The position numbers and the translations under genes were made by a program. Of a stretch of DNA of 64,000 bases, positions 39,768-64,000 are shown piece by piece. The DNA lies in NCBI GenBank assembly GCA_039809245.1, contig JBDHUP010000004.1, positions 12,599 through 76,598 of the forward strand, written 5' to 3'. This DNA is from Minisyncoccia bacterium. Lineage in GTDB: Bacteria > Patescibacteriota > Minisyncoccia > Phycocordibacterales > UBA9973. Numbering within the stretch: position 1 is the stretch's first letter; the number at the start of each line of letters is the position of its first letter. Under the pieces are notes generated by a model, which worked only from the letters and a program-made list of their open reading frames with translations, had not been told where the DNA came from and searched no databases.

Positions 39768-39850
39768 AATTTTTATTCCGCAACGCGGTGTTATTGATAA
39801 ATGAACCTCTATTATATCATACGAGTAAATATTGCAACACTTGACACCTG

Positions 39851-39921
39851 TGCGGGATACGAGAATCGAACTCGTGTCTCAACCTTGGGAAGGTCGCATG
39901 CTACCACTATACCAATCCCGC
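39851..39921 (-). tRNA. tRNA-Gly (anticodon CCC)
   Basis: GCGGGAT acceptor, anticodon arm CGACC-TTCCCAA-GGTTG, T arm ACGAG-TTCGATT-CTCGT. The D stem is weak. Confidence 0.68.
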
Positions 39922-56185: not shown

Positions 56186-57319
56186 CTATTTTATGATCCT
56201 AGGTAGAAGTGGGTTTATTCGAGTCGTAACCTCATAGTTAATAGTTTGTGTTTTGTTAGCTATATCCTCAGAGGTTATAGTTTCACCCTTCTGGGAGCCC
56301 AGTATTACTACCTCATCTTCAGGTTTTACGCCCTTTATATGGCTTACATCTACTACGAACATATTCATAGCTACACGCCCCAAAATAGGTGCATTCTTCC
56401 CTTTTATTAAGACAGAGCCATTGTTTGAAGAGAGTCTGTTTACTCCGTTTGAATACCCTTGTGGGATGACAGCTATCATCATATTCTTTCTTGTTGTAAA
56501 TGAAGTCCCGTAGCCGATAGATTCACCGACTGGGATTTCTTTCACTTGAGCCACATGAGTGACATAGCGCATCACAGGCTTGAGCTCTATCTTCTTCTGC
56601 CACATTTTCTTCAAATTCTCACTTGGCCACATACCATAGAGTCCGACACCGACGCGGACAATAGCGTTGTATCCATTCCACTTCTCATAAGCGAGCACTC
56701 CAGAAGTTGCCGACATATGAGTCTTAATATTTTTGAATCCATTCTCTCTGAATAACTTTACGGCTTCTTCGTAAGCCTTGATCTGCTTTGACGCATAAGT
56801 GAAGTCAGTCGTATCTTCGATGTTCGCAAAGTGCGCATAGATTCCATCTACACTTATATTCTTCATCTTCTTTATTTCTTTTATGAAAGTCGCCACTTGC
56901 GAAGGAAGAATCCCCTCACGACCCAAGTGCGCATCGATACTGACATGCACTTTCTGCTTCACTCCTAATTTCCGAGCACTTTCATTTATAAGTAGTGCGT
57001 GGTGTAGATCAAACACAGTTAAAATACATCCGAGCTTTATGGCTTCTTTTATATCGCTCTTGCCTACGTAACCAAGAAGAAGTATCGGCTTCTTAGTAAC
57101 TTGTCGGACTTTCTCTAATTCTTCCACACTGTTTATCTGAAAATAATCTACATATGGAGCAAGAATCTTCACTACTTCCAAGTCACCGTGACCGTAAGCA
57201 TTAGCTTTCACCACTCCTGCAATCTTTGTCCCTCTTTTCACAATACGTCGAAACTGCTTGATATTATGGATCAGATTTTTCTTACTTAATTCTATATATG
57301 ATAATGGAAGACTTTTCAT
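56186..57319 (-). CDS. alr: alanine racemase
   Basis: PLP site VVKANAYGHG and a C-terminal beta domain. Start set at MKSLPLSY; the longer track ORF runs into tRNA-Leu. Confidence 0.85.
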   Translation of the reverse strand: MKSLPLSYIELSKKNLIHNIKQFRRIVKRGTKIAGVVKANAYGHGDLEVVKILAPYVDYFQINSVEELEKVRQVTKKPILLLGYVGKSDIKEAIKLGCILTVFDLHHALLINESARKLGVKQKVHVSIDAHLGREGILPSQVATFIKEIKKMKNISVDGIYAHFANIEDTTDFTYASKQIKAYEEAVKLFRENGFKNIKTHMSATSGVLAYEKWNGYNAIVRVGVGLYGMWPSENLKKMWQKKIELKPVMRYVTHVAQVKEIPVGESIGYGTSFTTRKNMMIAVIPQGYSNGVNRLSSNNGSVLIKGKNAPILGRVAMNMFVVDVSHIKGVKPEDEVVILGSQKGETITSEDIANKTQTINYEVTTRINPLLPRIIK

Positions 57320-57321
57320 TG

Positions 57322-57403
57322 TGCCGGAGGAGAGACTTGAACTCTCATCCCTTGCGAGACGCGATTTTGAGTCGCGCGCGTATACCAATTCCGCCACTCC
57401 GGC
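57322..57403 (-). tRNA. tRNA-Leu (anticodon CAA), class II with long variable arm
   Basis: GCCGGAG acceptor, 3-bp D stem, anticodon arm CGCGA-CTCAAAA-TCGCG, long variable arm, T arm GAGAG-TTCAAGT-CTCTC. 82 nt, no CCA. Confidence 0.85.
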
Positions 57404-57432
57404 ATACAAGAAATATACCTCAACTTAAGAAT

Positions 57433-58496: not shown

Positions 58497-60008
58497 ATGA
58501 AAAAACAATCAGATCAGCAAAAAATAGGCTTTTTTATTAAGGAATTAAGGGAAAAACGTAAATTAACCCAAGGAGCATTTGCCAAAGAACTAGGTACATC
58601 TCAGAGCGCCGTAGCCCGCATGGAGAAGGGTGAGCAGAACTTCACAACAGAGCTTCTGTCTAAAATAAGTACTGTCTTAGACCACCAGATAGTATCGATA
58701 AATGATTCTATAGATTTCCAAATCGTTGGTGGGAAGAAATTAAGTGGAAGTATTACAACCAGCTTCTCTAAAAATGGATCAGTTGGGCTTCTTTGTGCTT
58801 CCCTTCTGAATAAAGGTAAGACGACACTTCATGGTATCGCACGTATTGAAGAAGTTTATAGGGTTATAGAAATACTAGAGAGTATCGGTGTGAAAGTCTC
58901 TTGGATAAAGCAAAACTGTGTAGAAATAACACCGCCAAAGAAACTAAAACTTGAAAACTTGAACGTAGAGTCAGCGATAAAAACAAGATCTATAATTATG
59001 CTTATAGGTCCACTTATACATTTGCTTCCATCTTTCTCTATTCCCCACGCTTCGGGTTGCAACTTGGGTAAGCGAACTATCTCGGCACACAAATACGCTC
59101 TTGATGAATTGGGAGTTAAAATAAAAACTACAAATACATCCTACGACATAACAGTAAATACACTTAAGCCCGCAGACATAGTAATGTACGAGACTGGAGA
59201 TACCGCTTGTGAAAATGCTTTAATGGCTGCTGCCAAGATTGATGGTATAACAAAGATAGAGTGTGCTAGTGGAAACTACATGGTCCAAGAAGTTTGCTTC
59301 TTCTTGCAATCACTTGGAGTAGAGATTGAAGGTATAGGCACAGGTACTCTTACTATAAAAGGTAACCCTAATATAAATATGGATGCTGAATATCACAATA
59401 GTGAAGATCCTATTGAATCAATGATGTTTATATCTGCAGCTATCGCAACTGATTCTACTCTTACTATCAACCGCTGCCCTATCGACTTTCTTACGCTTGA
59501 ACTTTATAGATTAAAAAAGATGGGATTAAAATATAAAATCCTAAATAAATATCTATCGAAAAACGATAAAACAAAGCTCATAGATATAGAGATCCTGCCG
59601 AGTGTTCTGAAAGCTCCTTACGATAAAATCCACGCTAACCCATACCCAGGTATAAATATAGATAACCTTCCTTTCTTCGTGCCTATTGCTGTGCGTGCCG
59701 CTGGTACAACACTTATACATGACTGGTTCTACGAGAATCGTGCTATTTATGCTACAGAGCTTAACCGCCTAGGAGCAAGTGTTACTCTAGCCGACCCTCA
59801 CCGTGTATATATAACTGGTGGGACTCCTCTGACTTCAGCTCAAGTGGTCTGCCCTCCAGCACTCCGCCCTTCTATGGTTATCCTTATATCTATGCTTGCC
59901 GCAGAAGGTACTTCAATCCTTCGAAGTGTCTATATGATTAACCGTGGCTATGAAGATATAGCTCGTCGCTTGAACTCCATCGGTGCAGATATTACAATAC
60001 TTAAGTAA
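58497..60008 (+). CDS. murA: XRE-family HTH domain fused to UDP-GlcNAc 1-carboxyvinyltransferase MurA
   Basis: Residues 1-65 form a classic XRE HTH (LTQGAFAKELGTSQSAVARMEKG). The rest is the EPSP-synthase-fold MurA, with the catalytic Cys in SGCNLGKR and a C-terminal NRGYEDIARRL. Confidence 0.8.
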   Translation: MKKQSDQQKIGFFIKELREKRKLTQGAFAKELGTSQSAVARMEKGEQNFTTELLSKISTVLDHQIVSINDSIDFQIVGGKKLSGSITTSFSKNGSVGLLCASLLNKGKTTLHGIARIEEVYRVIEILESIGVKVSWIKQNCVEITPPKKLKLENLNVESAIKTRSIIMLIGPLIHLLPSFSIPHASGCNLGKRTISAHKYALDELGVKIKTTNTSYDITVNTLKPADIVMYETGDTACENALMAAAKIDGITKIECASGNYMVQEVCFFLQSLGVEIEGIGTGTLTIKGNPNINMDAEYHNSEDPIESMMFISAAIATDSTLTINRCPIDFLTLELYRLKKMGLKYKILNKYLSKNDKTKLIDIEILPSVLKAPYDKIHANPYPGINIDNLPFFVPIAVRAAGTTLIHDWFYENRAIYATELNRLGASVTLADPHRVYITGGTPLTSAQVVCPPALRPSMVILISMLAAEGTSILRSVYMINRGYEDIARRLNSIGADITILK

Positions 60009-60924
60009 TCTGCTTCTTAATTTTATATCCCTTACAATGTTTGAGTATACCTAGATACGATTGCTTTACTTCTGGTGGGACTTCTTTTTTGAATAGTCTT
60101 AACATTCGCTTCTTTGTATTTGTACGTAAGGTAGTATGGTAAGGAAAAATGACATACCCGAGGAAATCAATACCTTGAGACGCTTTCCTTATTTCTACTT
60201 TTCGTGGATGCAGAGATAATTTTAATTCAGTTTCTAAGAAATTAGAAACTCTTGGAATCAGTTTCTCTGTATATTCTCTATCTTTTGAGACTACTACAAA
60301 ATCATCACAATACCGGATATAGTGTTTTACTTTAAGTATATGTTTTACAAACTTATCAAATTCATTCAGATATACATTTGCAAAAAGCTGACTTGTGACA
60401 TTACCGAGCGGAAGACCACATCCTTTTGATTTTTCAAAACTTGAAATAATATTTTCAATCAACCAGTGAGTATCACGGTCTTCTATATACTTAAAAAGGA
60501 TATTTTTCAATATCACGTGGTTAATAGAGTCAAAGAACTTGGAGATGTCACACTTAAGCACCCAAATGTTCTGCGTATTATTCTTGCTTTCTTTGCGAAT
60601 GAATTCTCTAAGTCTTTCCACCCCTTTGTGCGTTCCTTTATTATTCCTACAAGAATATGAATCATAAATAAAAGTGGGGTCATATATTTTATACAATACT
60701 CGATATATTGCTTGATGTACTACCCTATCGCGAACATTCGCTTTATGTATATGCCGTCGCTTTGGATCATAAACATAGAAAGGGATATATGGCTGATTCT
60801 TATATATCTTATCTCGTAAGTTATAATGAAGATTGAATATATTACTCTCTAAATTAAAATCAAATTCTAAAACATCCTTCTTTTTATTCTTGCCTTTTTT
60901 GAATTCCCACCAAGCACCAAGCAA
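60001..60924 (-). CDS. DGR reverse transcriptase (N-terminus interrupted by a G10 tract; as called, it starts at TTG)
   Basis: RT motifs 1-7, including LPLGNVTSQLFANVYLNEFD (DGR hallmark [ILV]GxxxSQ, closely matching Bordetella phage bRT) and YCDDF. An ATG at 61009 becomes in-frame with 9 instead of 10 G. Confidence 0.85.
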   Translation of the reverse strand: MLGAWWEFKKGKNKKKDVLEFDFNLESNIFNLHYNLRDKIYKNQPYIPFYVYDPKRRHIHKANVRDRVVHQAIYRVLYKIYDPTFIYDSYSCRNNKGTHKGVERLREFIRKESKNNTQNIWVLKCDISKFFDSINHVILKNILFKYIEDRDTHWLIENIISSFEKSKGCGLPLGNVTSQLFANVYLNEFDKFVKHILKVKHYIRYCDDFVVVSKDREYTEKLIPRVSNFLETELKLSLHPRKVEIRKASQGIDFLGYVIFPYHTTLRTNTKKRMLRLFKKEVPPEVKQSYLGILKHCKGYKIKKQIT

Positions 60925-60966
60925 ATTTTCAATTGATATGATATTATTAAAAACACCATGAGTATA

Positions 60967-60976
60967 CCCCCCCCCC
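60967..60976. repeat. homopolymeric C10/G10 tract
   Basis: Ten consecutive C on the plus strand in a roughly 33% GC context. It lies inside the probable 5' coding region of the RT. Confidence 0.9.
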
Positions 60977-61051
60977 GACAGAATTATTGAGCTTCCTATC
61001 CTTGGTCATATAAAGAGATTATATAAAATCTTGTACCAAATAGGAATGAAA

Positions 61052-61339
61052 ATGCCTAAAAATAATAAACTCGGTATTCATAATGTTTTACAAGAAAAGT
61101 GTCTTGAAATACTTACGACTGTCGTAGATGCTTCACTTCGTTCAAAACAAGATAAAATTCCTTATCTTGTAAAAGCTCGTAGAGATATAGAAGTACTTAA
61201 ACATTTAGTTCGAATGGAGTACGAATTAGAAATCATAACAGAGAAGACATATCTAGCTAGTGCGCATATATTGCAAGACATTTCAATGATGGCAACAGGC
61301 TGGCAGAAATCACTGCAAACACAAAAGCCCTTGATGTAA
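61052..61339 (+). CDS. avd: Avd-like DGR accessory protein (putative)
   Basis: Basic helical protein of about 95-100 aa ending 25 nt upstream of the TR. RBS AGGAA lies before Met8. Orientation is opposite to the RT and target. Confidence 0.4.
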   Translation: MPKNNKLGIHNVLQEKCLEILTTVVDASLRSKQDKIPYLVKARRDIEVLKHLVRMEYELEIITEKTYLASAHILQDISMMATGWQKSLQTQKPLM

Positions 61340-61363
61340 ATCAAGAGCTTTTACGAGAAACTT

Positions 61364-61472
61364 CTGACGTGGACCGTTGTCGGGATTGCGATTGTCACGA
61401 TTGTCGTTGCTCACGTTGAACTGGTCATTGTCATTACGGTTCATGTTCAAAGCGTTGCCGTCGGAATCAAGT
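61364..61472 (-). repeat. DGR template repeat (TR)
   Basis: 109-nt repeat. In target-gene sense it reads ...GGC AAC GCT TTG AAC ATG AAC CGT AAT GAC AAT..., with 14 AAY codons. It is invariant relative to the VR except at A positions. Confidence 0.8.
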
Positions 61473-61702
61473 CTCTGTATGTAGTCATCTTTATCTCCGT
61501 GTATCGTTTACACAACACACTGTGTTATCTAGCTCTTTACTAGTCTTTGTTTAGAATCTTAATTTAATTCCCTAACTACATACAGGCAGTTTCTAAATAT
61601 TGGCGAACCGTCATCTCTTTAAAGATCAGCTCAACAGCCGTTTATAGTATATATAAAAAATTCCCCTTGGCAAAATAAATTGCAAAGGGGAAAAGTTAAA
61701 AG

Positions 61703-62467
61703 CTACGCAGTTTTAGAAAGCTTAAGCTGACGTGGACCGTGGACGGGATAGCGATTGACACGAAGGCCGAGGCACACGTTGAACCGGTCATAGTCATAAC
61801 AGAGCATGCCCAAAGCGTAGCCGTCGGAATCAAGTGCATGGAAGCGGGTCAAACCTTTTACGTCCAACATGTTGCCTGTTTCAAACCTTTCACGGAAAGC
61901 GGCAATAATACCTTCTTTCGGAATCATGTAATCGTTGCCATCATTGCAAAAATCATCATAACTCTTATTGAGGTGCTCTGTATCAGGCTCGATAGTTCCT
62001 GCCCAAGCAAAGCAATAGTTGCCTTTTGGACGATCCTGCTGTGTATCTATTGCATTATCCGGATTCTGCGAATATGAATTGCTGGAAACTTTATCGTCAC
62101 CAAATTTTTTCTTATAAGCAGTAATATATCGCTTGCAATTAAAACCTGCGTGAACGTATTCCAACCGCGGAAATTTTTTATCATATTCGGGTAATGTTGT
62201 GGTAGACCAGTCTATAATATGATTGAAGTTGCTTTTGTAAAAGCGTTCAATCTTTTTCTTCTGGTCAGCCCAAGGGTCAATTTCTATAGCAAGTAATTTT
62301 GCTACAATTTTAGCCGTGGCGTTTTCAACAAGTTTTTCATCTCCGAGAATTTGTTGCATTTCTCCTAAATTGAAATGTCCATCAATGGCATTAATAACAC
62401 CATTGGAAATAGTGAGGCCTAAGCGTGCATATTGCGCGCCAGTAGCCGGGATTTTCGCGTTGTTCAT
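61703..62467 (-). CDS. DGR target (variable) protein, 254 aa, VR at C-terminus
   Basis: The ORF's last roughly 45 codons include the VR. About 20 TR/VR differences, all but one at TR adenines. Confidence 0.75.
   Translation of the reverse strand: MNNAKIPATGAQYARLGLTISNGVINAIDGHFNLGEMQQILGDEKLVENATAKIVAKLLAIEIDPWADQKKKIERFYKSNFNHIIDWSTTTLPEYDKKFPRLEYVHAGFNCKRYITAYKKKFGDDKVSSNSYSQNPDNAIDTQQDRPKGNYCFAWAGTIEPDTEHLNKSYDDFCNDGNDYMIPKEGIIAAFRERFETGNMLDVKGLTRFHALDSDGYALGMLCYDYDRFNVCLGLRVNRYPVHGPRQLKLSKTA
61727..61835 (-). repeat. DGR variable repeat (VR)
   Basis: Direct-repeat partner of the TR, encoding ...LDSDGYALGMLCYDYDRFNVCLGLRVNRYPVHGPRQ. The TR encodes N at most varied codons. Confidence 0.8.
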
Positions 62468-62603
62468 AACTCTGCGTTTTTGTTTTAATGTAAAGAACTA
62501 GAGGGTAAAAGAGTATTACCATATTTGTTCTATATTATACACCTAAAATAAGCTTATGTCAATAATACATAATTCCTTTCAAATAAAGCTTTTTAGGCTA
62601 TAA

Positions 62604-63200
62604 TTGGCTTATATGGCGAAAATGTCTAATCGTGAGAAGCTTGATGAATTAAATACATACTGGCAGGAGCATTGTACTTGTGAGCTAAAAAAGACTGCAA
62701 CACAAGCTGTCTTTGGTGATGGAAATGCTGATAGCGATATAGTTTTCATTGGTGAAGCACCAGGTAAGAATGAAGACCTCGAAGGTAGGCCTTTTGTCGG
62801 AGCTGGGGGTAAATTCTTAGCTGAAATGCTTGAGAGTATAAAAATGAAACGAGAAGATATCTATATTACCAACATTGTAAAATATCGCCCACCGAACAAT
62901 CGTGATCCTCTACCAGAAGAAAAAGAAGCTTGTAATGAATGGCTTATGAGTGAACTCAAAATAATTAACCCAAAGTTAATAGTATTCCTAGGTCGCCACT
63001 CAATGATGCGATTCTTCCCTGAAGAAAAAATATCGGATGTTCATGGAAAACTTTTGATAAAAAATATTACGGAACTTAATAAGAAGCAAGCCTTCCTCCC
63101 TCTCTACCACCCAGCGGCCGCACTATACAACGGAGGCTTACGCGAAACATTAATTAAAGATTTTAAGAAAATCCCAAAAGCACTATTAAAACTTGGGTAA
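62604..63200 (+). CDS. uracil-DNA glycosylase, family 4
   Basis: GEAPG motif (FIGEAPGKNED), HPAA motif, and Cys residues for an Fe-S cluster. Confidence 0.8.
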   Translation: MAYMAKMSNREKLDELNTYWQEHCTCELKKTATQAVFGDGNADSDIVFIGEAPGKNEDLEGRPFVGAGGKFLAEMLESIKMKREDIYITNIVKYRPPNNRDPLPEEKEACNEWLMSELKIINPKLIVFLGRHSMMRFFPEEKISDVHGKLLIKNITELNKKQAFLPLYHPAAALYNGGLRETLIKDFKKIPKALLKLG

Positions 63201-63292
63201 AATAGTCTTTGAGAAAAGCCTTGCGCAGGCGGGTAGCCGAGCAGAGAAATTTTTCAACAGAAAAATATTCGTGCTTTTAGAGAAGAGCTATT

Positions 63293-64000
63293 TTACCCAA
63301 GCCTCTTCACTTCAATACACATAAATAAAGGTATTTCTTTTCGAGCTGTGTCTTCGGCGCTTTGTCGTGGACCAGTTTGGCTTTTCTTGTGAGATATCCA
63401 TTCCTCAAGGCGAGTCATAGCGAAGCCATTCTTAGAAAGTAGCTTCATATAGTATTGAAGTGGTCTGTGGAATGAAATAGTTTTAATTTTCTTCTTTGGG
63501 TCTTTTTCACCTGGGGTCATATCTATGGACACTTTCGATTCCGAAAGATACTTACCTACTGTGCGATACTGCACACCATCTTTAAAGTACCAATCACTCC
63601 CTTGCGGTACACGAAAGGATGGGTGGTTAAGAACAAATACTATTCTTCCACCCTTTTTTAATATTCGAGAACACTCAGCAAATACTTCATTTACATTTTC
63701 AATATTTTGAATTGCGAGAACCACTACAACAGTATCGATAGTATGATCTTTTATAAAAGGAGCCTTGTGAGCTGGAGTTACGTGAAAATTTATATTTTTA
63801 GGAGAGTTTTTGATAGCTTTCTCTATTAATCTTTTAGATAAATCAGAAGCTACAACATTTGCTCCATTTGCCGCAAATACATTCGCAAAATAACCTTGCC
63901 CACAAGCAAGATCATATACTATCTCCCCTTTCTTTATATCTAAAACTCTTAGAAGATTCGGAGCTATAACCTTTGCTTGATAACTATCGGCATCAGTCGT
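63293..64000 (-). CDS. class I SAM-dependent methyltransferase (5' end beyond the window)
   Basis: Minus-strand ORF continues to the window edge. Motif I DLACGQGYF was translated by hand from 63990-63720. The track shows only the part after the internal Met. Confidence 0.7.
   Translation of the reverse strand, partial: TTDADSYQAKVIAPNLLRVLDIKKGEIVYDLACGQGYFANVFAANGANVVASDLSKRLIEKAIKNSPKNINFHVTPAHKAPFIKDHTIDTVVVVLAIQNIENVNEVFAECSRILKKGGRIVFVLNHPSFRVPQGSDWYFKDGVQYRTVGKYLSESKVSIDMTPGEKDPKKKIKTISFHRPLQYYMKLLSKNGFAMTRLEEWISHKKSQTGPRQSAEDTARKEIPLFMCIEVKRLG

Follow-up and report, generated by a model that had tools for sequence, protein, structure and literature searches.

A ten-G run in the leader of a DGR RT is probably a conserved slippery switch in dozens of related CPR bacteria and not a sequencing error

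DGRs are most abundant in the CPR/Patescibacteria group. Continuous mutagenesis by a DGR would erode useful variants, and to our knowledge little is known about how DGR activity is regulated. We know of no repeat in the 5′ end of brt, the RT gene of the Bordetella phage BPP-1 DGR. Coding repeats that set gene expression or mutability have been described in other settings: poly-G contingency loci in Campylobacter (in the available text of PMC4965091), intragenic G-tracts in Bifidobacterium breve pilus genes, for which replication slippage is documented (PMC9187656), phase-variable methyltransferases of phasevarions (available text of PMC5909438), and coding homopolymers of MSH6 and MSH3 that toggle mutability (available text of PMC11250277). 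Productive transcriptional slippage in bacteria, as documented in the accessible parts of one study (PMC6260861) and one review (PMC5009743), involves A/T runs, not G. In a literature search, neither poly-G or homopolymers nor phase variation or slippage turned up in any paper in connection with DGR RTs, a mention in the CPR DGR survey of Paul et al. 2017 being possible; Roux et al. 2021 mention neither frameshifts nor homopolymers.

The locus reported here lies in the window, meaning the whole 64 kb stretch of DNA that was analysed, and comprises the following features.

60001-60924, minus strand: called RT ORF with a TTG start (ORF list)
60001-61005, minus strand: RT reading frame, from TGA 61006-61008 to its own stop (Pfam RVT_1, 2.2e-25)
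60947-61009, minus strand: leader ORF at 10 G, MTKDRKLNNSVGGGVYSWCF followed by a stop, conserved in relatives
60967-60976, minus strand: G10 homopolymer, the putative slippery tract, RT leader codons 12-15, with homologous G7-13 runs in 73 non-redundant loci
61018-61023, minus strand: TATAAT, candidate -10 box 8 nt 5′ of the leader ATG (sequence reading and cross-locus conservation)
61052-61339, plus strand: avd (accessory variability determinant), 95 aa, ATG 61052 (Pfam bAvd, 37.5 bits)
61364-61472, minus strand: template repeat (TR), 109 nt (repeat comparison)
61703-62467, minus strand: DGR target ORF, 254 aa, with the variable repeat inside (ORF list)
61727-61835, minus strand: variable repeat (VR), 109 nt, 3′ end of the target gene (repeat comparison)

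The element is a bona fide DGR, combining an RT of the appropriate type, an adenine-biased TR/VR pair and an Avd-type neighbour. TR and VR differ at 19 of 109 positions, 18 of which are TR adenines replaced in VR (TR-A to VR-N) and one a C to T change; this sole non-adenine mismatch falls at 61438 in TR and 61801 in VR, and the VR alleles of related strains carry one to three non-A differences each. A Pfam search with the target ORF (61703-62467) gave no match. The avd hit of 37.5 bits is slightly under the bAvd cut-off of 40 bits, and close homologues are precomputed as PF22296. Since avd and the RT point away from each other, with avd antisense to the TR-to-RT direction, an arrangement that 59 of 81 related loci share, the RNA of the TR and the mRNA of the RT may be separate transcripts. 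With avd taken as 61031-61339 (plus strand) and the RT as 60001-61009 (minus strand), the two start codons lie about 40 nt apart. An Rfam search of 59500-63000 at E<=1 returned no match.

The RT is otherwise intact, with no other lesion and with all motifs kept, including LPLGNVTSQLFANVYL and YCDD, and residues F20, N28 and L29 do not vary across 26 aligned homologues. Once the frame is repaired, residues 19-305 align with residues 8-283 of Bordetella bRT (8ub7_A, the best solved relative, E=2.6e-43), so the N-terminal likeness to bRT that the original prediction proposed is real. Because this alignment begins at repaired residue 19, the called TTG start, which corresponds to L29, would cut off a conserved N-terminal segment. 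A 503-aa ORF at 58497-60008 (plus strand), in which an N-terminal HTH_3 domain is fused to an EPSP-synthase/MurA-family enzyme, is convergent with the RT, overlaps its 3′ end by 8 nt and is also the neighbour in the closest relative, locus L081. An alanine-racemase-like ORF at 56186-57409 (minus strand) has a listed TTG start that spans tRNA-Leu(CAA) 57321-57403, and its first ~30 residues are spurious.

A plus-strand C10 at 60967-60976, G10 on the minus strand, parts ATG 61009 from the DGR RT frame. On the minus strand the leader reads TATAAT-ctctttat-ATG ACC AAG GAT AGG AAG CTC AAT AAT TCT GTC, followed by GGGGGGGGGG and then TAT ACT CAT GGT, and codons 1-11 of this leader ORF correspond to a conserved RT N-terminal leader of the M-x-[ND]-R type. 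With 10 G, translation from ATG 61009 (minus strand) gives MTKDRKLNNSVGGG, VYSWCF and then TAA at 60949-60947; deletion of one G yields a 335-aa ORF beginning MTKDRKLNNSVGGGYTHGVFNNIISIENLLGAWWEF. The leader shares the RT frame at 9 or 12 G and misses it at 10 G. The RT ORF as called (307 aa) starts at TTG 60924, and in the RT frame no ATG, GTG or TTG occurs between the upstream TGA at 61008-61006 and that codon. Positions 60925-60966, which hold no canonical start codon themselves, code for the conserved YTHGVFNNIISIEN segment. The sequence bears out what had been predicted here, namely an RT ORF that starts at a TTG with no in-frame ATG after the upstream stop (GTG and TTG being absent as well), an ATG at 61009 that crosses the run into a stop, and a single-G deletion that joins this ATG to the RT.

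No other G or C homopolymer in the window, whose GC content is 35.9%, exceeds a length of 6; from base composition alone, ~0.004 runs of at least 10 would be expected per window (0.18^10 x 128,000), and GGG makes up 14% of the Gly codons. The proposed rarity of G10 therefore stands, and the GC content of roughly 33% quoted with it does not, the window being at 35.9%.

Several other ways of reading through or past the run were considered for the window and rejected. Four-base decoding is ruled out by the normal 7-nt anticodon loop of tRNA-Gly(CCC) (39850-39921), and an alternative genetic code in which TGA encodes Gly is not needed, since table 11 already gives full-length neighbouring genes. 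Termination at the end of the leader ORF followed by reinitiation is ruled out because the stop, at 60949-60947, comes only after the invariant F20 codon. A role of the G-run as ribosome-binding site for a downstream start is ruled out in the window since the only ATG, at 60959, is in the wrong frame. This ATG, 7 nt 3′ of the G-run, opens an out-of-frame ORF of 31 codons (60959-60864, minus strand; MVFLIISYQLKICLVLGGNSKKARIKRRMF followed by a stop), which the G-run could serve as a ribosome-binding site; ATG 60959 is absent from the relatives inspected by eye.

Searches with the repaired RT recovered thousands of homologues, roughly 8,000, the window's own RT call being P0001. P0001 itself was found on no other contig, whereas the Avd of the window did lead to a second assembly. 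Loci were taken from 80 species-representative genomes (all CPR/Patescibacteria MAGs) and 80 metagenome loci, to which the four closest relatives, several same-strain sets and, as outgroup, 80 viral-contig loci were added; the tract-bearing set consists of 73 non-redundant CPR loci whose RTs are ~50-78% identical to that of the window. Comparison with related DGRs, proposed as a check on the original prediction, recovered a homologous tract in these 73 loci and an out-of-frame RT in 53 of them. The tract is an uninterrupted run of G7-13 (mode 9-10) located 16-55 nt 5′ of the IISxENL codons, and nearly all of the 88 G/C runs of at least 8 in the fetched loci (754 kb) sit at this RT-leader site. 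As far as these sequences reach, the tract is a clade-wide feature and not a peculiarity of the window genome. In the viral DGR RT loci (73), no homopolymer of at least 7 or other simple repeat was found within 110 nt 5′ of the RT motif (0/73).

What surrounds the tract is conserved as well. Related loci carry an ATG 5′ of the run, usually 25-37 nt ahead, in the order TATAAT box, N8-11, ATG with an 'M-N-N-R' leader, G-run. An exact TATAAT is present in 28 of 72 related loci, compared with 1% of control ATGs, and a match of at least 5/6 in 47 of 72, compared with 11%; among the 47 loci with a match of at least 5/6, 40 have a gap of 8 or 11 nt from box to ATG. This spacing points to an RT mRNA that is leaderless or nearly so and has the leader ATG as its first AUG. 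A generic sigma-70 promoter scan did not call an RT promoter, which it would miss because a good -35 is absent, so the promoter case rests on the cross-locus conservation of TATAAT. Leader codon 4 encodes Arg through AGG, CGG, AGA, CGA or CGT in in-frame and out-of-frame loci alike, and this use of both AGR and CGN codons in the two frame classes argues for selection on the translated peptide. Full-length homologues begin M-x-N-N-R-x-L-N-x...GGG..HS..F..IIS.ENL, which indicates that leader and Gly run belong to the protein when in frame. Minimum free energy (MFE) folds of the leader-tract RNA vary by locus, and no common structure or motif was found among them.

The relation between leader and RT frame is labile. 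Among the 73 tract loci, 20 are in frame, 37 need +1 (the class of the window) and 16 need -1, whereas all of the 45 relatives that lack a tract and have an identifiable start are in frame (tract versus tract-less, Fisher p=4e-17; four seeming tract-less exceptions are mis-picked ATGs). Several loci that lack a tract retain the leader but have their Gly stretch interrupted (one case being ...EGGGH from gagggaggtggc) and look like locked-on derivatives, judging from their sequences; GGAGGTGGC would be the 'locked' counterpart of the slippery tract. Frame state carries no phylogenetic signal, nearest neighbours agreeing in 26 of 73 cases where permutation predicts 27.1+-4.7. The four closest relatives, from independent datasets, are all +1 (L081, L083 and L084 with G10, L082 with G9). 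The +1 class is in excess (37/73, chi-square p=0.006) and the in-frame state, at 27%, is not enriched; lengths of G9-10 account for 33 of the 37 members of the +1 class versus 17 of 35 in the other classes (p=3e-4). This excess and confinement of the +1 class resemble the outcome of selection that favours a single out-of-frame configuration.

Repeats other than poly-G occupy the same end of the gene in sister lineages. Daviesbacteria-like loci carry (GA)9-13 inside the ORF, in frame in L057 and L106 and out of frame in L046 and L101, and repeats lie 5′ of the ATG in L065 and L075, with (CT)18-28, and in L109, with (CCTGT)12. What all these repeat types have in common is instability when a polymerase copies them, not a specific codon or amino acid.

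Other possible starts are present in some relatives. A canonical start (ATG, GTG or TTG) in the RT frame 5′ of the invariant F20 is absent from 33 of the 53 out-of-frame loci, the window included, and an ATG, GTG or TTG is present in the RT frame near the tract in the other 20. The latter loci, together with L100, L113, L078, L096 and L120, which keep a G9-11 run although the RT has its own ATG (MKI...) 3′ of the tract, would fit a different role for the run, as an upstream element of the avd promoter or as an RNA or DNA structural signal, with the RT starting at a non-canonical ATA, ATT or CTG (60999-60979) or at a fortuitous start beside the tract. The C-run does lie 11 nt upstream of an avd-facing, promoter-like TTGAGC-N16-TATAAA, identified by reading the sequence, yet it falls outside the -35/-10 spacer of that site, and the Rfam search gave no match. 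Such a role would also leave unexplained the conservation of leader ATG, -10 box and Arg codon in out-of-frame loci, and the finding that tract-less loci are always in frame; we consider it improbable. In L100 the G-run stands 5 nt ahead of the RT's own ATG, where a ribosome-binding site would be, and in this sub-lineage the tract has a second role or was co-opted; in a few relatives of this kind it may act as a ribosome-binding site.

The possibility that the run is a homopolymer sequencing or assembly error, or that the RT is a pseudogene being lost, draws on the difficulty that short-read assemblies have here. Some contigs are interrupted at the tract, and in L099 and L036 the poly-C/poly-G sequence is messy and includes an N gap. 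Contigs L002, L017, L065, L099 and L117 end at or beside the repeat, L099 in a long messy poly-C, and in L036 a C15 adjoins G11 beside an N gap; in all, the contig ends no more than 200 nt upstream in 14 of 160 loci, a count that is anecdotal. Contig ends at the repeat could reflect either within-sample length heterogeneity or trouble in sequencing poly-G. Against an artefact, the Logan assembly of SRR19427084 (L251) is 100% identical to window positions 60898-64000 (3,103 nt), C10 included, and the consensus tract length is unchanged in 8 of 10 same-strain assembly sets, which indicates that length calls are reproducible and that the consensus state can be stable. Against decay, the RT has no other lesion and all of its motifs, the TR/VR signature is adenine-specific, the four closest relatives share the +1 state and out-of-frame relatives are active as judged by VR diversification. 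With 53 of 73 loci out of frame, the homopolymer error that the original prediction had weighed is very unlikely, and we give artefact and decay together only a very small chance.

The two remaining same-strain sets show the tract changing in DNA. L087 and L159 (JGI contigs of ~60 kb) differ over 3,993 nt only by G9/G10 and by a T/TT indel 19 nt 5′ of the tract (position 1490 in L087, 1480 in L159), both in the RT leader, and the pair suggests compensatory frame changes within the leader. In five samples of another strain, L260, L261, L263 and L264 are G9 and in frame and L262 is G10; L260 and L262 are separated by one gap, the G itself, with zero mismatches over 1,616 nt. Repeat-length polymorphism between otherwise identical genomes is thus seen in two related strain sets, the window's strain being G10 in both of its assemblies, and on the evidence of these assemblies one-G change at the DNA level does occur.

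We assign a probability of roughly 0.85 to the reading that the G-run works as a slippage gate on the DGR RT and is conserved as such, a core that holds for slippage at either the DNA or the RNA level. The ten-G run would then be a selected simple-sequence repeat on which RT synthesis hinges through polymerase slippage, and the RT, the driver of targeted hypermutation, is probably made only upon such slippage. The RT mRNA would begin nearly at ATG 61009, with 11 leader codons translated before the G-run. At 10 G translation would stop after 20 codons; at 9 G (or 12 G) it would run on into the full 335-aa RT, and the full-length trans-frame product would carry the junction peptide ...NSVGGGYTHGVF over the tract.

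As to the layer at which slippage operates, the tract is uninterrupted, lies within an ORF and sets the frame by its length, as in the structural definition of an SSR contingency locus. The slipped-strand switch put forward in the original prediction fits the conserved tract, the labile frame, the one-G differences and the other repeats in sister lineages. One-G flips, varied repeat types, the lack of phylogenetic signal and the poly-G precedent favour a DNA-level switch, in which tract length would flip among three states, a single in-frame one ('on/high') and two that are out of frame ('off/low'), so that the mutator would be silent in most cells and a minority would diversify the target gene. 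Switching would be reversible and frequent, for which the missing phylogenetic signal of the frame state offers indirect support, in-frame cells would be the source of RT activity, and the gating may be adaptive, with bursts of diversification after which a variant is locked in. RNA-level slippage on the same run would probably add some leak. We put replication slippage, as the operative layer that makes the RT phase-variable, at about even odds.

The DNA-level reading is weakened by an in-frame state that is not enriched, by the excess of the +1 class with its narrow G9-10 range, and by consensus lengths that stay the same in 8 of 10 same-strain sets. One strain in particular complicates a strict on/off switch in DNA. 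The strain with Avd P0146, represented in at least 8 samples, is G10, +1 and out of frame in 8 of 8 assemblies with identical flanks, and carries four VR alleles with 25 differing columns, 22 of them TR adenines. The DGR has therefore diversified its target even though the consensus RT of this lineage is out of frame, and a pure DNA switch would need each diversified lineage to have come back to exactly G10; since out-of-frame alleles support VR diversification, the switch may be leaky or act at the RNA level. The assemblies L252-L258 (locus positions ~1382-1491), otherwise identical and holding the four VR alleles, make up a natural time or space series of DGR activity.

These data open the way to constitutive recoding, in which a G is lost or gained by RNA polymerase, or ribosomes change frame by +1/-1 on GGG GGG G, such that out-of-frame alleles, especially +1, would yield a steady little full-length RT and the DNA length changes would be a by-product. 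Besides a G10 strain that diversifies its VR in several samples with the tract unchanged, this reading gains from the +1 class being commonest and confined to G9-10, close to the length of the RNA:DNA hybrid, from an in-frame state that is not favoured, and from an apparently leaderless mRNA, which leaves no alternative ribosome entry. At its mode of 9-10, the homopolymer is at least as long as the hybrid (about 9), the length expected for transcriptional slippage. The three frame relations among close relatives are unlike a fixed programmed frameshift, however, no conserved stimulatory structure was found in MFE folds around leader and tract, and the bacterial cases of productive transcriptional slippage cited above use A/T runs. 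In-frame and out-of-frame loci are likewise mixed in the (GA)n lineages, although (GA)n is no known slip site for ribosome or RNA polymerase, and the tRNA-Gly(CCC) of the window has an ordinary 7-nt anticodon loop. Constitutive recoding is thus a possibility to be taken seriously, if one that we lean against. A fixed programmed ribosomal frameshift is unsupported, given that in-frame, +1 and -1 states all occur among close relatives and neighbours differ like random pairs.

A repeat that gates the RT would be a simple answer to DGR regulation in the group richest in DGRs, and would connect simple-sequence contingency loci with retroelement-driven hypermutation. Whether targeted hypermutation is phase-variable throughout a large CPR/Patescibacteria clade, with the DGR silent or barely on in about three quarters of genomes and stochastically released, is in our estimate a question with equal weight on both sides. 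If so, bursts of diversification would be heritably locked in, amounting to a second-order switch of evolvability, and many of the DGR RTs that databases list as 'truncated' would be working alleles caught in the off phase. Among 120 homologues, the called start lies fewer than 8 aa ahead of the Gly run in 44, while the conserved S-x-ENL is missing from 18 (5′-truncated or partial calls). Gene callers put RT starts at arbitrary downstream or neighbouring codons, and DGR surveys may for that reason count such elements as defective. Were the RNA-level reading true instead, that too would be new, a leaderless mRNA being productively recoded at a G-run.

Set beside known systems, the locus shares with the Bordetella phage BPP-1 DGR (bRT-Avd, TR/VR; 8ub7) a homologous RT, an Avd-family gene, adenine-specific TR/VR and a VR at the target 3′ end. 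It differs in that avd is divergent from the RT, where Bordetella has an avd-TR-brt operon, and in that the RT has an ~11-aa extra leader, a homopolymer-coded Gly-run and its own -10 box beside the ATG.

The G-run resembles a Shine-Dalgarno sequence, as does the prfB stimulator, and might function as one. As in the prfB +1 frameshift, dnaX and IS-element transcriptional slippage (PMC5009743), a full-length product here needs a frame change at an early slippery run; unlike in those cases, the frame relation in the window's family is not fixed, the run is G rather than A/T, and no conserved hairpin, pseudoknot or slow codon was found in the relatives. The G-tracts of Campylobacter jejuni and B. 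breve offer a close likeness in their uninterrupted run near the ORF 5′ end, one-G frame toggling, AT-rich genome and lengths that vary between near-identical genomes. The gated gene, however, is here a targeted-mutator polymerase and not a surface structure or restriction-modification enzyme, the tract is single in 64 kb and not part of a genome-wide set, and the +1 out-of-frame state predominates and is seemingly length-constrained. Phasevarions and MSH6/MSH3, as far as the available text of their sources describes them, likewise have a repeat that gates an enzyme with many downstream outcomes; enzyme, organisms and target are different, and what would be gated here is the site-directed hypermutation of a single variable repeat.
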